DNA from: a bacterium
Lineage (GTDB): Bacteria; JACRDZ01; JAQUKH01
Direction: 5' to 3'
DNA: 58,133 nt
Assembly (NCBI GenBank): GCA_028719205.1
Contig: JAQUKH010000013.1
Span: forward strand, 1-58,133
The position numbers and the translations under genes are program-made. Below the pieces are notes generated by a model. That model ran no database searches. It saw nothing but the letters and a program-made list of their open reading frames with translations, and was not told where the DNA came from. Of this stretch, positions 2,443 through 9,554 are shown one piece after another. The first letter of the stretch is position 1. Each line of letters starts with the position of its first letter.

Positions 2443-3789
2443 TTAATAATCTTTTAGCGAATTAATTACCAGCCCTGTCAGTATTTTAGGGTAAAAATAT
2501 GTGGATTTGTGGGGCATTCGCTCGCCTAAAGACGCGATTTTTTTAACCTGGGAAATTTTAGTAGGATTGAGCAGGATAACCGCTTTAGCCTCTTTTTGGT
2601 CAACTTTTTTACATGCCGTTTCAGTGTCGGCAAGGTAAAAGATATCTTCTTCTTTTGCCTTAAAAATAGTGTGGATCAAGATATATTGCAGTACAACTAC
2701 ATCAAGTTCAGCCCATTCTTTTGGTTTGCCGTGCTCCATTTTTTCCAAAACATGATTATGGTCTTTTAATTTCAGGAGTAAAAATGATTTTTCTCCTGAA
2801 AGATATAACCCAAAAAGATGTTTTTTAAGGCCTTCTTTTTCCATTTGGCCAATTAAAATCTTTAATTGAGACGCCTTTTGCTTTTCATTTCTAAAGGGAA
2901 ACTTTTTAACTAAAAAATATTTTTCAAGCTCATTCATTTTTAAAGGCACAAAATCTTTGAGCAGGCGGTGTGTGGGTAAAATGGTTAAACCGGTATCATC
3001 CATATTGGAAAGGTACATCATTACATAATTATAAGGCTCTTCGCCTGTGAATTTTTTATCCTTCTTTCTTCTTTCGTTGCGGTAATTCAATGCTGTTTCA
3101 TAACGATGATGCCCGTCAGCGATAAAAAGCGGCTTTTTTTCAATATTTTTAACTATTTTTTTGATCGTATTTGTATCTGTGATTTTCCAAAGCCGGTGTG
3201 TTGAACCTTCTTCGTCTTTCAATTCAATATCCGGTTTACCCGCCGTGGAGGGCCTGCCCGCCTGGGCGGGCTTGCCGATGTTAGCCGTAAAGAGTTTATT
3301 GATATTGTTATTTTTATCAGGGTAAAGGGCAAAAACCTGGCTTAAATTTACCTGACAACTCCGTAAAAGGTCTAAACGGTCGGATTTAACATTTTTAAAT
3401 GTTTTCTCATGCGGCAGCACTACGCCGTTTTCAAAATCTTCAATTTTCACGAGAGAAATAAAGCCCGAACGAATTTTTTTCAAATTATTTTTTAAATTAT
3501 AAGTGTGTGTATGAAAATAAAAGGCGGGAACTTCGTCACGGGTAAGAACATCTTTTCCAAGCCACTCATTAATAAAATCATTAGCGCGGGTATATTTATT
3601 ATTTTTTAGATTATCGTCTTTGATTTCTTTCCCCAGGTCAAGGCGGACGATATTAAAAGGAGATTTTTTATAATATTCATCCTGTTTTTTAGGTGTGATT
3701 ACATCATAAGGCGGTGTGACCGCGTTACTTAAATTTTTTACCTTTTTTGTATTATACAAGATCCCGCGAAACGGAATTATATGCGCCAT
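2443..3789 (-). CDS. DUF1015 family protein
   Basis: MAHIIPFRG, TPPYDVI, VLPHEKT, FIADGHHRYETA, LPTHR and MPHKSTYFYPK motifs. Confidence 0.9.
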   Translation of the reverse strand: MAHIIPFRGILYNTKKVKNLSNAVTPPYDVITPKKQDEYYKKSPFNIVRLDLGKEIKDDNLKNNKYTRANDFINEWLGKDVLTRDEVPAFYFHTHTYNLKNNLKKIRSGFISLVKIEDFENGVVLPHEKTFKNVKSDRLDLLRSCQVNLSQVFALYPDKNNNINKLFTANIGKPAQAGRPSTAGKPDIELKDEEGSTHRLWKITDTNTIKKIVKNIEKKPLFIADGHHRYETALNYRNERRKKDKKFTGEEPYNYVMMYLSNMDDTGLTILPTHRLLKDFVPLKMNELEKYFLVKKFPFRNEKQKASQLKILIGQMEKEGLKKHLFGLYLSGEKSFLLLKLKDHNHVLEKMEHGKPKEWAELDVVVLQYILIHTIFKAKEEDIFYLADTETACKKVDQKEAKAVILLNPTKISQVKKIASLGERMPHKSTYFYPKILTGLVINSLKDY

Positions 3790-3900
3790 GTTCCCCTCAA
3801 TTTAGAAAAAGTAATTATATCAAAAAATAGATTTTTTTCAACTATTATAATAAATTTTTGCATCTAAAATTTTATTGATAAGCCCAAGAATCGGAGTATA

Positions 3901-4692
3901 ATGAAAAAAAATGGAAATTTTTATTTACAAAATATGAATAATAATGATATTTTGTCAAAACAAGACGCAATCTGCCTTTTAGACCTTATTAATGAAAGCC
4001 TTTTCTGTGCAAAAGAGAAAGAATTCAGAATTCTTTTGGATAAATTAAAAAACCTGCTTAATTTTGAATATGCCGTTAGCGCATCGATAAATCTTGATAA
4101 AAAAGGATTAATAGAATCTTATGAGCTTGTCAATTTAAATTATCCGGCCCAATGGATGGAAGCTTATGTTGAAAAAAGATATGATCTGATTGATCCCATT
4201 GTTATAGAAAATATTACCAAATATAATGTTCAGTACTGGAATGATACTTACAAAAAACATAATGCTCCTAAAAAATTTGTAAATACAGCAAAAGATGTTG
4301 GACTAAAAGAAGGTTATACTTACGGATTGAAAAATCTTGAAGGTACTCATGGCACTATATTTTCATTTTCAGGGCCGAAATACAAACAGCAGCTTAGAAC
4401 AGAGTATATTTTAAAATATGTAATTCCACATCTACATCAGGCACTTATCCGCTTTTTAAAACCGAATATGAAACTGAACGCAGATAAGGATGATGTTTTA
4501 CTCTCTTCCCGGGAGAAAGAGATACTAAATTGGGTTAAATACGGGAAGAGTTCCTGGGAAATATCAGTTATCCTTCACATCAGCGAAAGAACAGTAAATT
4601 TTCATGTTACTAACATTATGCATAAGCTGGATGTCGTGAAAAGGTCTCAGGCCGTCGCAGTGGCGATTGATCAGGGGTATATTCAGATTTAA
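3901..4692 (+). CDS. LuxR-family regulator with autoinducer (AHL)-binding domain; no luxI in the window
   Basis: NYPAQWMEAY...IDP...W...G ligand-binding residues and C-terminal LuxR HTH LSSREKEILNWVKYGKSSWEISVILHISERTVNFH. Confidence 0.92.
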   Translation: MKKNGNFYLQNMNNNDILSKQDAICLLDLINESLFCAKEKEFRILLDKLKNLLNFEYAVSASINLDKKGLIESYELVNLNYPAQWMEAYVEKRYDLIDPIVIENITKYNVQYWNDTYKKHNAPKKFVNTAKDVGLKEGYTYGLKNLEGTHGTIFSFSGPKYKQQLRTEYILKYVIPHLHQALIRFLKPNMKLNADKDDVLLSSREKEILNWVKYGKSSWEISVILHISERTVNFHVTNIMHKLDVVKRSQAVAVAIDQGYIQI

Positions 4693-4783
4693 TAAACCAT
4701 TCCATTTATCCATCTCAATTCCTCTCGAAAAATTATGCCTTAAATCAAAATTTATAAGTTATTCGGGAAAAAAGATTTACCCT

Positions 4784-4803
4784 ACCTGTAATAAATTACA
4801 GGT
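4784..4803 (+). promoter_or_regulatory. lux box (20-bp inverted repeat) with a candidate -10 element TAAAGT at 4825-4830
   Basis: ACCTGTAAT-AA-ATTACAGGT has 9-bp perfect arms. The outer 7+7 bp match the V. fischeri lux box ACCTGTA-N6-TACAGGT. It lies directly downstream of the luxR gene. Confidence 0.85.
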
Positions 4804-4852
4804 GTTTTTTACGGATAAAAATTGTAAAGTATATATATTTAACGCAATAAAA

Positions 4853-4966
4853 TCCCTGCGCTCGGAAGAACTGTAGATTTTAAGAAAACTGTTTCATCCC
4901 TCCGGTTTTTTTAAAAATGGCCGGGAGTAGTTTTCAGCCAGATAACTGCGTCTTCTGGGTGTGGGA
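4853..4966 (+). ncRNA. Putative long rod-like RNA hairpin (sRNA or structured 5' leader), family unknown
   Basis: TCCCTGCGCTCGGAAGA pairs with TCTTCTGGGTGTGGGA. Inner stems GAAAACTGTT/AGTAGTTTTC and TCCGGTT/GGCCGGG. Many G-U pairs favour the + strand. Paired by eye only. Confidence 0.5.
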
Positions 4967-5006
4967 GGTTTCATGTGAAAATATTGGAAATGCAAAAAGG
5001 AGCGGC

Positions 5007-5159
5007 ATGCAAGATGATTTATCAAAAATTCTGGTGATTATTCAGGCATTGGAGGAGGCCGAAGAACAGGTTCGCCTGCGGCAAATGAAGGAAAGATCAG
5101 AAGAAAGCACGAAAGAATTAACGGAATTGCATACGGACCCGGCTGACAAGGACAAATAA
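5007..5159 (+). CDS. Small 50-aa charged helical protein of unknown function
   Basis: AAGGAG ribosome-binding site 4 nt before ATG 5007; MQDDLSKILVIIQALEEAEEQVRLRQMKERSEESTKELTELHTDPADKDK. Confidence 0.6.
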   Translation: MQDDLSKILVIIQALEEAEEQVRLRQMKERSEESTKELTELHTDPADKDK

Positions 5160-5177
5160 AAGATAAAATTTAAGGTT

Positions 5178-6062
5178 CTATTTTTTTTCCAACGGTTCCA
5201 TATGGACCACTACATCTGTTATCTCTTTAATATTAATTTTGATCGTGGTTTCAATTGAATTGCTTATTTCATGGGCTTTATCTATGTGTGTTTCCGGGTT
5301 TATCTGGACGTGCAGGTCTAAATGTATATCGTCGGGCCTGCCTCGCGACCGTATCTTGTGGCATGCTTCTACTCCGTTGATACTGAGGACAATATTTTTT
5401 ATTTTATTATCATCTATCACCGCGGTATCACACAGGACTTGCGAACCCTCTTTTATTATCCCGTATGCCGCGTGGGCGATAAAAAACGATATGATGATCG
5501 CGGCGATCGGGTCAAATATCGGATAACCCAATTTAATCGCGGCTAAGGCAGTTAGAACTGACAGTGACGTGAAAATATCTGATTTTGTGTGAAGCGCGTC
5601 GGAAACAAGAAAGTCGCTTTTTAGCTCTTTTCCTTTTTTAAGTTCATATCTCATGACCAGAACATTGACGGTCATAGTCGCGATCATTATAATAAAACTT
5701 TTGTAATCTACCTCAGTAATAGCCGCGGCCGGATTGAGAAAACGATTTATGCTTCCTCTGATCAAATTGAAACAAACAACGCTTAATAACCCCGCGATGC
5801 TTAAAGACGCGAAGGTTTCATATTTTTTGTGCCCGTACGGGTGATCCTTGTCTATTGGCTTGGATGCGATAGCGATCCCGACCAGGCCTATTATGTTTGA
5901 AGCCCCGTCGGTTAATGAATGGAATCCATCCGCGGTCATACTCATGCAGTTGGTGTAAATGCCATAGAATATTTTTGCGAAGGCCACCAGCCAGTTTAAT
6001 AGCAGGGTGATGAATAAGATAAATTTAATATCTTTGTAACGGGTTTGTCCTGTGGATTCCAT
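5178..6062 (-). CDS. Cation diffusion facilitator (FieF-like) transporter
   Basis: ADGFHSLTD, HPYGHKKYE, SDALHTKSD and a C-terminal dimerization domain ending VVVHMEP. Confidence 0.93.
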   Translation of the reverse strand: MESTGQTRYKDIKFILFITLLLNWLVAFAKIFYGIYTNCMSMTADGFHSLTDGASNIIGLVGIAIASKPIDKDHPYGHKKYETFASLSIAGLLSVVCFNLIRGSINRFLNPAAAITEVDYKSFIIMIATMTVNVLVMRYELKKGKELKSDFLVSDALHTKSDIFTSLSVLTALAAIKLGYPIFDPIAAIIISFFIAHAAYGIIKEGSQVLCDTAVIDDNKIKNIVLSINGVEACHKIRSRGRPDDIHLDLHVQINPETHIDKAHEISNSIETTIKINIKEITDVVVHMEPLEKK

Positions 6063-6119: not shown

Positions 6120-7172
6120 TCATTTTAATTTAAAATTCTTTTTGGTGAAAAGTTCCACACAGGCGTCTACTGCGACCGGTTCATAAAAAATACCTCTGTT
6201 TTCTGAAAGCTCTTTTAACGCGCCATCGATGCCGATAGCCGGCCGGTACGGACGGTGAGATATCATGGCCTCAAAAGTATCAGATACACGCAATATTTTT
6301 GCTTCCAAAAGGATCACATCACCGGACAGCCCCTGAGGATAGCCTGAACCATTGATATTCTCATGATGTTGAAATACTATCTTGGCGATAGGCCAAGAAA
6401 ATTCTATGTCTTTTAAAATAACGTAACCTGTTTCAGGGTGAAGGCGAACCAGATTCATTTCATGTTTGTTCAGCCAGGCCGGTTTAACCAGTATGTCGAT
6501 AGGGACGCTGATCTTTCCGGTATCATGTACTAATGAAGCTAAATACAAACCCTTGATCTGTTCCTCCGACAGCCCGACAAGTTCAGCGATAGCTGAAGAA
6601 AGCTGAGCTACGCGGCGCTGGTGGCCGGCAGTATAAGGGTCTCTTTTTTCAAGAGCGAAAGCGAAGGCGTCAATTGTTTCTATTAATATTCTTTGCAATT
6701 TCTTTTTTTCAACCTGCAATTCGGATGTACGCTCATTTACTTTAACCTCAAGGTCATTCTTCGAGTTCTGAAGTTTTTTCTGTATAAGGCTGCGTTCAAG
6801 CGTATAGTCTATAGCGCGCAGGAACATATTACATTCAAGCTGATTTTTAGTAATATAGTCCTGTGCGCCTTTACTGACCGTACGGATCGCCAGGGTCTCA
6901 TCTTCGGAACCGGTTAAAATAATCATAGGGGTATCGTGAGCCTGCTCTTTGACTTTTGTGAAAGTGTCAAATCCACGGGAGTCCGGCAAATTAAGATCCA
7001 GTAAGATCAGATCAAAGATATTATTTTTTTCATACTCTAATGCTTTTACTAAATTATCAGACCATGTGATCGCAAATTCTGTCCTTCCGGCAATTTTAAA
7101 TATCTTTTGATATAAGTCTACTGAGGATGGATTGTCTTCAATGATGAGTATCTTTGTATTTTCTCTTTTCAT
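6120..7172 (-). CDS. Response regulator with HD-GYP phosphodiesterase domain
   Basis: REC (ILIIED, LLDLNLPD) plus RDPYTAGHQRRV, HDTGK, HHENINGSGYPQGL and HRPYR. Confidence 0.93.
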   Translation of the reverse strand: MKRENTKILIIEDNPSSVDLYQKIFKIAGRTEFAITWSDNLVKALEYEKNNIFDLILLDLNLPDSRGFDTFTKVKEQAHDTPMIILTGSEDETLAIRTVSKGAQDYITKNQLECNMFLRAIDYTLERSLIQKKLQNSKNDLEVKVNERTSELQVEKKKLQRILIETIDAFAFALEKRDPYTAGHQRRVAQLSSAIAELVGLSEEQIKGLYLASLVHDTGKISVPIDILVKPAWLNKHEMNLVRLHPETGYVILKDIEFSWPIAKIVFQHHENINGSGYPQGLSGDVILLEAKILRVSDTFEAMISHRPYRPAIGIDGALKELSENRGIFYEPVAVDACVELFTKKNFKLK

Positions 7173-7176
7173 ATTG

Positions 7177-7560
7177 TTAACTCCTTTCGCCGAGTTTTTT
7201 AAACACTTCCTCTATTGTTGTTTTCAAAAATACCAGATCAACCGGTTTTTCCAGATATTGGTCAATATATTCGACGGGTAAATCTTTTTTATTTAATTCG
7301 TTTATTATCGCGGTTAAAATAATAACCGGTATCGCTTTAGTATTTTCATCTCTCTTCAATATTTTTAAAACCTCTATGCCGTTCATTCCGGGCATGTTAA
7401 TATCTAAAAGGATCAAATCAGGATTCAGGCTCTTTACGTTCATGATACCATCTTCTCCGTTAAACGCGATGTTTACTTCAAAAGCACCCATATGTTCCAA
7501 ACCGGCCTTTACTATATCGCAAATCCTTTTTTCGTCATCAATGATTAATATCTTTTTCAT
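7177..7560 (-). CDS. Single-domain response regulator
   Basis: KILIIDDE, DLILLDINMPGMNG, ILTA, EKP. Confidence 0.93.
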   Translation of the reverse strand: MKKILIIDDEKRICDIVKAGLEHMGAFEVNIAFNGEDGIMNVKSLNPDLILLDINMPGMNGIEVLKILKRDENTKAIPVIILTAIINELNKKDLPVEYIDQYLEKPVDLVFLKTTIEEVFKKLGERS

Positions 7561-7562
7561 CT

Positions 7563-9554
7563 TTACGCTTTATCTCCCATCGGCAGAAGTATGGTAAAGG
7601 TAGTTCCCTTATTCAATTCGCTTTCTAATTTTAATTCTCCTTTATGCACCTCAATTATACCCAGACAAATTATAAGCCCTAACCCTGTTCCTTCTTCTTT
7701 GGTTGTAAAAAACGGATTAAATATCTTATTCTTGACCTCTTCTGACATACCGCATCCGGTATCCCTGAAATCAATGCGTAAATAGTCTTCCTCCTGGGAA
7801 GTTTTAATAGTGATGGTTCCGCCATCAGGCATTGAATCTTTGGCGTTACTGATTAAATTCATAAAAACTTCCTGCATCTGTTGTTCGTTCACTGATACAG
7901 AAAGATCCTTCTGATAATCTCTTATTATCTCCACATTTGCTAACTTTAGCTGTTGTTCCACTATATTCACTATAGTGTCAATGCTCATATTAATATCAAC
8001 TTCCTTAACCTCGCCTTTGCTGGGCCTGGAAAATTTAAGGAGCCTCCGGATAATATTCTTTGCCCTCTGAGATTCCTCTATGATAATTTGCAGGTTACGT
8101 TTTACCTCATCGCTTAAAGGCCCTGACATTAAAGAAACCTGCGCGTTACCGGAAATTATCATCAAAGGATTATTGAACTCGTGAGCGATCTCAGAAACAA
8201 GCTTTCCCAGAGAAGCCATTTTTTCAGACCGGATCAGGATATTTTTGGCGCGCTTTAGTTCTTCAATATGCTTCTCTAATTTTTCCCTGATCAGATTATT
8301 ATCCGCTAACATGCTTAATAAGATCTCGCGGGATTTTACCTCCTGTTTCAAGGACTGGTTTAAATGCTCTTCCGCTTTTTTGCGTTCGATCACTTCTTTA
8401 TTCAAAATATCTAAGGAAGTCGTGGTTTCCCTTATATTTTTCGTCATTTTATCAAATTCCCGGGAAAGCTGTCCGATCTCATCTCTGGAATCATTGCCTA
8501 TCTGGTAGTCCAGATTACCTTTACCGATTATTTCTGCACCTTTTTGCAGTTCCTGTATAGGATCGGAAATGGACTTGGCTATCGTGAAAACGGCTAATGC
8601 TGTAGAAAAAATAGTTATTAAAATGACAACGATCAATAATTTTTTCAGCCTATCGACAGGTAAAAATGCTTCTTCTGAGTCGATCTTTGATACCAACCCC
8701 CATCCCAGATCTTCAATCGGCAGCCACACGGACAGGACTTCTTTTCCCCGGTAGTCAATGGTTAAACCCGAGCCGGTTTCTCCTAATGCTGATTTTTGGG
8801 CCGGCAAACCATATTCCCCGCCGATATTTATTGTTTGTGCTGAGATAGCTTCCTGTTGGTATTTTAACGGGCTTAAGAATATAACCTTATTATCCGGCGT
8901 TTTTTTAACAATTATTGTCTCCAAACTTTTTCCAAGTTCAGAGTTATCCTGTATAAATTTAAACCACTTAACCATATCTAATTCCAGATAGATCAAACCT
9001 ATAACTTTATTCGCGTTGTCATAGGCCGGAGCCGCAAGAAATAAATTATATGAGTACCGTTTGTTGATAGTTTTATGAAGCTCCCCGACATATATACCAT
9101 TTTTTGATTGCTGGAAAACATCATCTTTATTGGGTATAGCATTACCTATTTCCGGCTCAAATGCCGTATCAAAAACATAAATAATCTTTCCATCTATGTT
9201 TGTCAGCTTAATATCAATATAGCTTTGCGTGAGCTGGGATACAGCAAAACGTTGATCGACCTCTTTCCTGGCATTAATGTAGGAAGGATTTGACCGGTCT
9301 TTGTAAAATTGATCCAGTACGCGAAAATGTGTTTTGTATATATCAAGCTGCTCCATTAGAAGGAGGTCCTGCTTTCTTTCATTAAAAAATGTCTCAATTC
9401 CGCTCTTTTCTTCATTGTTAATAATACTTAATTTGGAAAGTATCTCTTTTTCTATGATATTTTTAGAGTTATTAAAAACCAGATTGCTTACAAACATCAC
9501 AGGTATGATTGCGAATGCTAAAAATATAATGACTAGTTTGATATAAATGCGCAT
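7563..9554 (-). CDS. Sensor histidine kinase (TM-Cache-like-TM-HAMP-HisKA-HATPase)
   Basis: Two TM segments, HAMP (DEIGQLSREFDKM), H-box EIAHEFNNPL, and N, G1 (DTGCGM), F (PFFTTK) and G2 (GTGLGL) boxes. Confidence 0.93.
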   Translation of the reverse strand: MRIYIKLVIIFLAFAIIPVMFVSNLVFNNSKNIIEKEILSKLSIINNEEKSGIETFFNERKQDLLLMEQLDIYKTHFRVLDQFYKDRSNPSYINARKEVDQRFAVSQLTQSYIDIKLTNIDGKIIYVFDTAFEPEIGNAIPNKDDVFQQSKNGIYVGELHKTINKRYSYNLFLAAPAYDNANKVIGLIYLELDMVKWFKFIQDNSELGKSLETIIVKKTPDNKVIFLSPLKYQQEAISAQTINIGGEYGLPAQKSALGETGSGLTIDYRGKEVLSVWLPIEDLGWGLVSKIDSEEAFLPVDRLKKLLIVVILITIFSTALAVFTIAKSISDPIQELQKGAEIIGKGNLDYQIGNDSRDEIGQLSREFDKMTKNIRETTTSLDILNKEVIERKKAEEHLNQSLKQEVKSREILLSMLADNNLIREKLEKHIEELKRAKNILIRSEKMASLGKLVSEIAHEFNNPLMIISGNAQVSLMSGPLSDEVKRNLQIIIEESQRAKNIIRRLLKFSRPSKGEVKEVDINMSIDTIVNIVEQQLKLANVEIIRDYQKDLSVSVNEQQMQEVFMNLISNAKDSMPDGGTITIKTSQEEDYLRIDFRDTGCGMSEEVKNKIFNPFFTTKEEGTGLGLIICLGIIEVHKGELKLESELNKGTTFTILLPMGDKA

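Follow-up and report, generated by a model that had tools for sequence, protein, structure and literature searches.

The 58,133-nucleotide (nt) contig JAQUKH010000013.1 (assembly GCA_028719205.1), whose full length is referred to below as the window, comes from an uncultivated bacterial lineage outside Proteobacteria. Between a DUF1015 gene and a CDF transporter gene, it carries a module of ~1.39 kb (positions 3790 to 5177) made up of luxR, which codes for a receptor of the type that binds acyl-homoserine lactones (AHLs), a lux box, a structured RNA, and a small open reading frame (ORF) of 50 amino acids (aa). The 2.59-Mb assembly to which the window belongs (G000) consists of 68 contigs and is 92.66% complete; its other contigs are labeled C6, C14, C18, and C29. 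The module was compared to two genomes of the same genus (G001 and G002), to a further relative (G025), and to 80 loci with relatives of the receptor, mainly from Nitrospirota and Desulfobacterota assemblies plus Chromobacterium. The LuxI profile used to look for a luxI relic was built from 42 ORFs.

The predicted AHL receptor

The luxR gene (positions 3901 to 4692, + strand) encodes a 263-aa CviR-like transcription factor. Its Pfam domains, Autoind_bind (PF03472, E 2.4e-21) and GerE (PF00196, E 3.4e-20), both score past the cut-offs, and no other gene in the assembly has an Autoind_bind domain. Nine residues that are invariant in AHL receptors are given, in TraR numbering, in the cited portion of a 2015 survey (PMC4338825). 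The original prediction, made from the window sequence alone, had assigned all nine to this protein, and this is borne out: W85, Y89, D98, P99, W113, G142, E205, L209, and G215 have the same spacing as the listed TraR positions W57, Y61, D70, P71, W85, G113, E178, L182, and G188, and they align with CviR, whose structure 3qp5 is the closest solved homologue (E 9.7e-30). By its sequence, the receptor is intact and of the AHL type. Each of the non-proteobacterial examples in the cited portion of the same survey lacks at least two of the nine residues (PMC4338825). Canonical AHL receptors with the complete set would here be extended to an uncultivated lineage outside Proteobacteria.

Full-length relatives of the protein were found in two of the genomes, with identities of 58% (G001) and 46% (G025). 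Another LuxR, P0002, is 78% identical. The alignment with the G001 protein begins only at residue 11 to 12, and a strong sigma-70–like promoter match (TTGATA-16-TATAAT, 11/12; window 3875 to 3934) ends at position 3902, overlapping the annotated ATG at 3901. Because of this overlap and because relatives align only from M12, the real start of luxR may be M12 at 3934, which would give a protein of 252 aa.

The lux box and the predicted outward promoter

A 20–base pair (bp) palindrome with 9-bp arms, ACCTGTAATAAATTACAGGT, is located 91 nt past the luxR stop codon (positions 4784 to 4803, strandless) and is the predicted binding site of a LuxR dimer. It fits the 20-bp lux-box type exactly at the 14 outer positions; the near-perfect box that had been reported ~90 bp after the stop is thus an exact one. 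Two exact ACCTGT-N8-ACAGGT sites are present in the 2.59-Mb genome, compared to 0.105 expected from base composition.

The −10 element TAAAGT (positions 4825 to 4830, + strand) follows the box after a 21-nt spacer. The G001 box, which sits between luxI and a response-regulator gene, is homologous to that of the window by its flanks (blastn match of 4764 to 4833, 73.6% identity over 72 nt, E 1e-5). Both flanks are kept in G001, the T-rich spacer on the luxI side and the promoter on the outward side. In the two genomes, GATAAAAATTG is followed by the −10 element (TAAAGT in G000, TAAAAT in G001), which starts exactly 21 nt after the box in both. The box of G025 likewise has TAAATT at a distance of 21 nt, on the flank that points away from luxI. 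The + strand promoter is supported by this conservation of sequence, spacing, and −10 element in G001, and transcription from it is predicted to start near 4836 to 4838. Judged by the G001 layout, this promoter belongs to the outward side of a bidirectional box and is not that of luxI. The TAAAGT element and 21-nt spacer of the original prediction are therefore real and conserved, but the promoter they belong to is the outward one and not that of luxI.

Searching the genome for more boxes, as had been suggested alongside the original prediction, returned the second exact site and a one-mismatch site. The exact site (C18:2092-2111, locus L114) is intergenic; on its − side, toward a secreted orphan ORF of 231 aa, TATAAT lies at a distance of 22 nt. 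The one-mismatch box (C6:83099-83118, locus L113 1600-1619) is likewise intergenic, and a TAAAAT 21 nt from it points to a secreted orphan ORF of 398 aa. Neither ORF matched a Pfam family. The chance of finding TAnnnT at a spacer of 21 to 22 nt on a given side is 0.05 at random positions. Since one-mismatch boxes occur genome-wide at chance level (6 seen versus 4.1 expected), the C6 site is put forward for its position and promoter and not for the box alone. Both sites are candidate members of a LuxR regulon. They support a live regulon, and the receptor appears to keep a small one.

Absence of luxI and comparison with relatives

No match to PF00765 (LuxI) was found in the G000 assembly, window included, in a search that did not extend to the LuxM/AinS and HdtS types. 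The best hit in the assembly of tblastn with the LuxI proteins of G001 and G025 had an E value of 0.13. The PF00765 search is valid because it detected one luxI each in G001 and G025. The statement that the window has no AHL synthase gene agrees with this search, which found no LuxI-type gene in the window or elsewhere in the assembly.

In both G001 and G025, the PF00765 gene (E ~1e-19) and luxR are convergent and overlap at their 3′ ends, and a lux-type palindrome lies 55 to 60 nt upstream of the synthase start. An adjacent convergent luxI was present in 27 of the 80 related loci by a strict window and in 6 more with a larger apparent overlap (33/80). In 7/80, luxI was located elsewhere in the flank: convergent at a distance of 0.9 to 1.5 kb (two loci), upstream on the other strand (four), or in tandem (one). 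No luxI was found in 37/80, although 900 nt or more of downstream sequence was available, and 3/80 were too short to tell. A convergent overlapping synthase gene of the CviR/CviI type is thus present in G001, G025, and 33 of the 80 loci and is absent in the window.

A gap of 91 nt separates luxR from the box here, compared to ~750 nt in G001, and this canonical luxI position is fully assembled in the window. The 91-nt segment (positions 4693 to 4783, − strand) aligns with the G001 box flank, contains no luxI coding sequence, and appears to be a residue of an ancestral locus, from its luxI side. A putative remnant of the luxI promoter, TCTTTTTTCCCG ... TATAAA, is found on the − strand 27 nt from the box; the spacing in G001 is 24 nt. 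A relic of luxI itself was not detected, as the LuxI profile scored no higher than 1.7 bits in any of the six frames of 4641 to 5200, while shuffled sequence reached 4.7. A 19-aa tblastn match to LuxI inside the small ORF (E 0.05 in the tiny search space of 4693 to 5177) was rejected as a chance match because the profile scores below shuffles.

When the window was compared to G001 by blastn, small collinear matches in a single orientation were obtained for luxR, the box region, and the RNA element; the 5′ part of luxI gave a further match of 38 nt, which was marginal (E 0.065). The G001 order, read in the orientation of luxR, is luxR, luxI (reversed), the box, a gene for a 133-aa response regulator, the RNA element, and a REC-PAS-HD-GYP gene. 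Given the collinear, same-orientation matches, the window resembles this layout minus luxI and the response regulator. As luxI in kin lies convergent between luxR and the box, the locus would therefore be a luxI-deletion derivative of a CviR/CviI-type convergent locus. The hairpin and small ORF that had been described at the usual place of luxI are both there, but the place of luxI in kin is a different one, between luxR and the box and on the opposite strand.

In G001 (locus L108 on contig C64, 8334-10440), the outward lux-box promoter faces the 133-aa response regulator, the leader RNA, and the REC-PAS-HD-GYP gene, and quorum sensing in this genome may feed turnover of cyclic di-GMP (c-di-GMP).

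The third genome of the genus, G002, has an empty site. Its CDF stop and DUF1015 start are separated by 11 nt, and the whole module is missing; window flanks 3701 to 3789 and 5179 to 5300 match this junction with 81 to 84% identity (blastn). A search of G002 for a LuxR match found none. One genus thus presents three states, the locus being complete in G001, without its synthase gene in G000, and represented by an empty site in G002.

Two contig ends in G001 bear on its own DUF1015 boundary. The contig with the DUF1015 gene (C27, locus L131) stops 197 nt past the start of the gene, the contig with luxR (C64) stops 217 nt upstream of luxR, and both tails contain GGGGATACTT. The two ends may be neighbors, as DUF1015 and luxR are in the window. 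On the other side of the window module, just past the CDF gene and convergent with the module, an operon on the − strand (6120 to 9554) encodes a 663-aa sensor histidine kinase (7563 to 9554), a 127-aa response regulator, and a response-regulator/HD-GYP protein.

The structured leader RNA

The region downstream of the outward promoter contains a structured RNA (positions 4843 to 4975, + strand) with a long closing stem around two hairpins, the first of which has the loop UUUCAUCCCUC. Folding of 4836 to 5010 confirmed the long hairpin noted in the original prediction (−50.3 kcal/mol, z −2.5; 0/200 shuffles fold as well). The G001 counterpart folds alike, and RNAalifold with the G001 copy yielded 32 pairs, 8 of them compensatory. 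In sequence, blastn of 4887 to 4915, inside the hairpin RNA, gave 86% identity over 29 nt.

A covariance model built on the window and G001 copies detected two additional copies in G000, which brings the total to four copies in two genomes. One paralogue (C29 22892-23005) precedes a MEDS-PAS-GerE regulator gene; the other (C14 52353-52467) precedes a 59-aa ORF followed by genes for a PAS histidine kinase and a response regulator. The G001 copy precedes the REC-PAS-HD-GYP gene. Among the four copies, in an alignment fitted to the model, 95.7% of pair cells are standard, compared to 43 to 70.5% in slid controls, and nine pairs change on both sides. The UUUCAUCCCUC loop is kept in three copies, the C14 copy being without hairpin 1.

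When 39 other relatives and the 4 other genomes available for the phylum were searched with the covariance model, no copies turned up. Pattern matching against contigs from metagenomes and genomes produced 15 loci, and 0/15 were confirmed by the model. Rfam 15 gave no relevant match at E ≤ 1 in 3700 to 5400, the sole hit being a plant microRNA model (E 0.28) inside luxR, and none at E ≤ 0.1 for the three other copies.

Of the four copies, that of the window alone has a lux box directly ahead of it. Those on C14 and C29 lie behind a direct repeat, CATACTTAAT ... ACTTAAT (~21 nt apart), and a promoter-like TATAGT, with no lux box (C14:52138-52540, locus L112 ~1270-1690, − strand; C29:22840-23005, locus L111 ~1450-1614, + strand). 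In the genome, ACTTAAT-N8-16-ACTTAAT occurs only at these two sites, while ~1.4 are expected by chance. The repeat is probably the site of another regulator. Since the C14 and C29 copies share this repeat and have no lux box, the RNA would be a leader module used behind different promoters. Masking of the ribosome-binding site of the small ORF by the leader was not seen in minimum-free-energy folds. Its pairing and its copies argue that the hairpin is a conserved structured RNA outside Rfam and not luxI debris.

The small ORF

The 50-aa ORF (positions 5007 to 5159, + strand) has its own ribosome-binding site, as had been claimed, with the Shine-Dalgarno sequence GGAG (4999 to 5002) 4 nt before the ATG. 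The 59-aa ORF behind the paralogous RNA on C14 is its paralogue. The two copies have in common the start codon and the AAGGAGCGGC ribosome-binding region, and a 3-nt indel between them leaves the reading frame intact. No homologue of the small ORF near its own length, and none longer, was found by a word-based search, nor did back-translated scans of genome contigs reveal any. A two-sequence profile searched against 1.84 billion representative proteins identified two small proteins of 54 aa (E 4.8e-19) and 55 aa (E 1.2e-15), encoded on contigs of 1.8 and 1.6 kb. Both share a common core with the small ORF and end in DFN. Together with the paralogue and these two proteins, the ORF is probably a real member of a rare family of 50- to 59-aa proteins.

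Weaker profile matches were to hybrid kinases, where they covered the end of the receiver domain and the linker leading to HisKA. P0127 is an example: the receiver spans residues 32 to 140, the profile match 131 to 172, and HisKA begins at 177. The family thus probably resembles the last helix (alpha-5) of a receiver domain plus the signaling-helix linker of sensor kinases. Relatives carrying luxI at this position together with a small ORF lacking conservation would have marked a decayed luxI locus. Relatives do carry luxI here, but the small ORF and the RNA are conserved and so are not luxI debris.

The idea that the small ORF is the N terminus of a split kinase was rejected. The C14 ORF and the kinase that follows are in frame, but the stretch between them is interrupted by several stop codons, and the kinase gene carries a separate ribosome-binding site, common to the C29 gene. 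Complex prediction for the 59-aa paralogue and the adjoining PAS kinase gave no support and hence no verdict on binding.

Discussion

We consider it reasonably probable that the window carries an AHL receptor that became solo by loss of luxI and that activates one linked target through the box and the outward promoter. A CviR-like receptor would have been left without a partner once the convergent luxI was deleted, while the lux box that formerly lay between luxI and an outward operon would have been retained and now lies 91 nt past the luxR stop. We infer that an AHL from foreign cells would be bound by LuxR, whose dimer would occupy the box and act as a class II–type activator, the box standing in for a −35 element and lying 21 nt ahead of the −10 element. 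Transcription from the outward promoter would start near 4837 and produce a structured leader RNA of ~130 nt followed by the 50-aa ORF, which would then be translated. The cell would probably listen to its neighbors without signaling itself.

An extension of this model, which we regard as tentative and on balance unlikely, is that foreign AHL switches on a leader RNA and a small protein that mimics the receiver alpha-5/signaling helix and is wired into two-component or c-di-GMP signaling. If so, AHL input would reach signaling through a riboregulator and a helix-mimic peptide and not through enzymes or a synthase, and any effect on two-component systems would lie downstream of these two products.

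Several observations weigh against a functional solo module. The module is dispensable in the genus, since G002 is without all of it. The flanking housekeeping proteins of G000 and G001 are 77 to 90% identical, whereas LuxR is just 58% identical; therefore, the module is either fast-evolving or horizontally exchanged, and descent of the modules in the two genomes may not have been simply vertical. Beyond the promoter, the window is without the response-regulator and HD-GYP genes of G001, and the RNA and ORF could be the residue of a larger operon. The RNA family numbers only four copies in two genomes, with pair counts taken from an alignment fitted to the structure. The GGAG-to-ATG spacing of 4 nt is short. 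The coding evidence that the in-genome paralogue provides is weak, the ratio of nonsynonymous to synonymous substitution rates (dN/dS) between the two ORF copies being an uninformative 0.74 on 50 codons. The box with its T-run also passes a simple scan for intrinsic terminators of luxR, and the incomplete assembly leaves room for a luxI elsewhere. A look-up of RNA runs returned none that covers the stretch.

Some of these observations fit a decaying quorum-sensing locus, in which loss of luxI and the signaling genes left luxR, the box, the RNA, and the small ORF behind as inert remains. The empty site of G002, the dN/dS value, and the disappearance, relative to G001, of luxI, the 133-aa response regulator, and the REC-PAS-HD-GYP gene all point that way. 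We nevertheless find decay unlikely, as luxR is not truncated and encodes all nine key residues, the 9+9 palindrome is perfect, the spacing of the outward promoter is as in G001, two additional box-promoters exist in the genome, and the pairing of the RNA has been kept through compensatory changes. A related question is whether the remnant luxI promoter still fires and produces a LuxR-activated antisense RNA over the luxR 3′ end, a negative feedback that would be compatible with the + strand promoter. The luxI-side spacer is conserved with G001, TATAAA lies on the − strand, and in kin the convergent luxI mRNA overlaps luxR, an arrangement from which negative regulation has been proposed in Chromobacterium in the cited part of that work (PMC12114271). 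The spacing of 27 nt, compared to 24 in G001, is far from the usual ~21, however, and the sole ORF there, of 49 aa, has no conservation, so that we hold such feedback to be decidedly unlikely.

That the receptor is not a solo at all, with luxI or another AHL synthase gene residing in the unassembled ~7% and the box being one site of a self-signaling regulon, would be allowed by an assembly that is 92.7% complete in 68 contigs, by the 7/80 related loci whose luxI is off the canonical position, and by searches that covered the LuxI type and not LuxM/AinS or HdtS. We judge it very unlikely, given that the canonical luxR-to-box position is fully assembled and only 91 nt long and that the PF00765 and tblastn searches described above returned nothing convincing. 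It is highly improbable, in our view, that the palindrome is mainly the intrinsic terminator of luxR, with the RNA and ORF beyond it either silent or transcribed from a constitutive promoter of their own. The box and T-run do scan as a terminator (a 9-pair stem with only three G-C pairs, a 4-nt loop, and a TTTTTT tail; −9.9 kcal/mol, z −2.6), and the terminator scan found no further such site after luxR. On the other hand, the palindrome is of the exact lux-box type at the 14 outer positions, the flank-homologous G001 box is located upstream of luxI, where termination of luxR is impossible, and T-runs border the boxes of relatives on the luxI side too. The two roles are, moreover, compatible.

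On the solo-receptor model, the genus offers a before/after picture in which a self-signaling quorum-sensing locus would turn into an eavesdropping receptor, with the synthase excised and the receptor, operator, and outward promoter kept. The value of the locus lies in this evolutionary series of three states and in two small, as yet unnamed families, the structured leader RNA and the 50- to 59-aa helix protein, which sit before signaling genes and are open to direct testing.

Parts of this picture are familiar. LuxR solos, lux boxes beside solos, and convergent CviR/CviI loci have already been described in the cited portions of earlier work (PMC4338825; PMC10134790; PMC12114271). The original prediction had found no described counterpart of the layout; this does not stand, because QscR provides a precedent in the cited part of its description (PMC6113619) and because luxR followed by a box 25 to 245 nt after its stop and by a non-luxI gene on the + strand occurs in at least five loci of our set (L039, L041, L065, L072, and L078), from Geobacteraceae, Solidesulfovibrio, and other Desulfobacterota assemblies, with no luxI in the flank. 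Among open-access papers, judged by title and the opening of the abstract and without supplements, we found no account of a lux-box promoter driving a structured leader RNA with a small ORF, which does not prove absence.

The orphan receptor QscR of Pseudomonas aeruginosa directly activates a single linked operon, PA1895-1897, according to the cited part of the report (PMC6113619). The receptor studied here resembles it in being an AHL receptor without its own synthase whose predicted direct target is a single transcription unit adjoining its own gene. Unlike the enzyme operon of QscR, the target would be a structured leader RNA and a 50-aa ORF. The solo state would also have arisen differently, by deletion of an adjacent convergent luxI, in an uncultivated non-proteobacterial host.

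The convergent CviR/CviI topology has been described for Chromobacterium in the cited part of that study (PMC12114271). Kin of the window locus share with CviR/CviI (3qp5, 3qp6) a convergent overlapping receptor/synthase pair and a palindrome upstream of the synthase; the window, in contrast, has no synthase. Unlike the 16-bp CTGNCCNNNNGGNCAG of CviR, the box here is of the 20-bp ACCTGT...ACAGGT type with an AT-rich center.

In the luxI promoter of Vibrio fischeri, the box is centered at −42.5 and is separated from the −10 element by 21 nt, the same distance that separates the box in the window from its TAnnGT-type −10 element. The 20-bp dyad is also identical at 15/20 positions to the V. fischeri lux box ACCTGTAGGATCGTACAGGT (PMC4444344). 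Unlike in V. fischeri, the downstream unit is not luxI/luxCDABE, and it is ordered in tandem after luxR and not divergently from it.

Sda of Bacillus subtilis is a small helical inhibitor of a sensor kinase. By analogy only, the small ORF is similar in encoding a predicted helical protein of ~50 aa located by signaling genes, its C14 paralogue lying directly upstream of the PAS histidine kinase. It has no sequence relation to Sda; its family probably resembles, instead, receiver alpha-5 plus the linker that follows.

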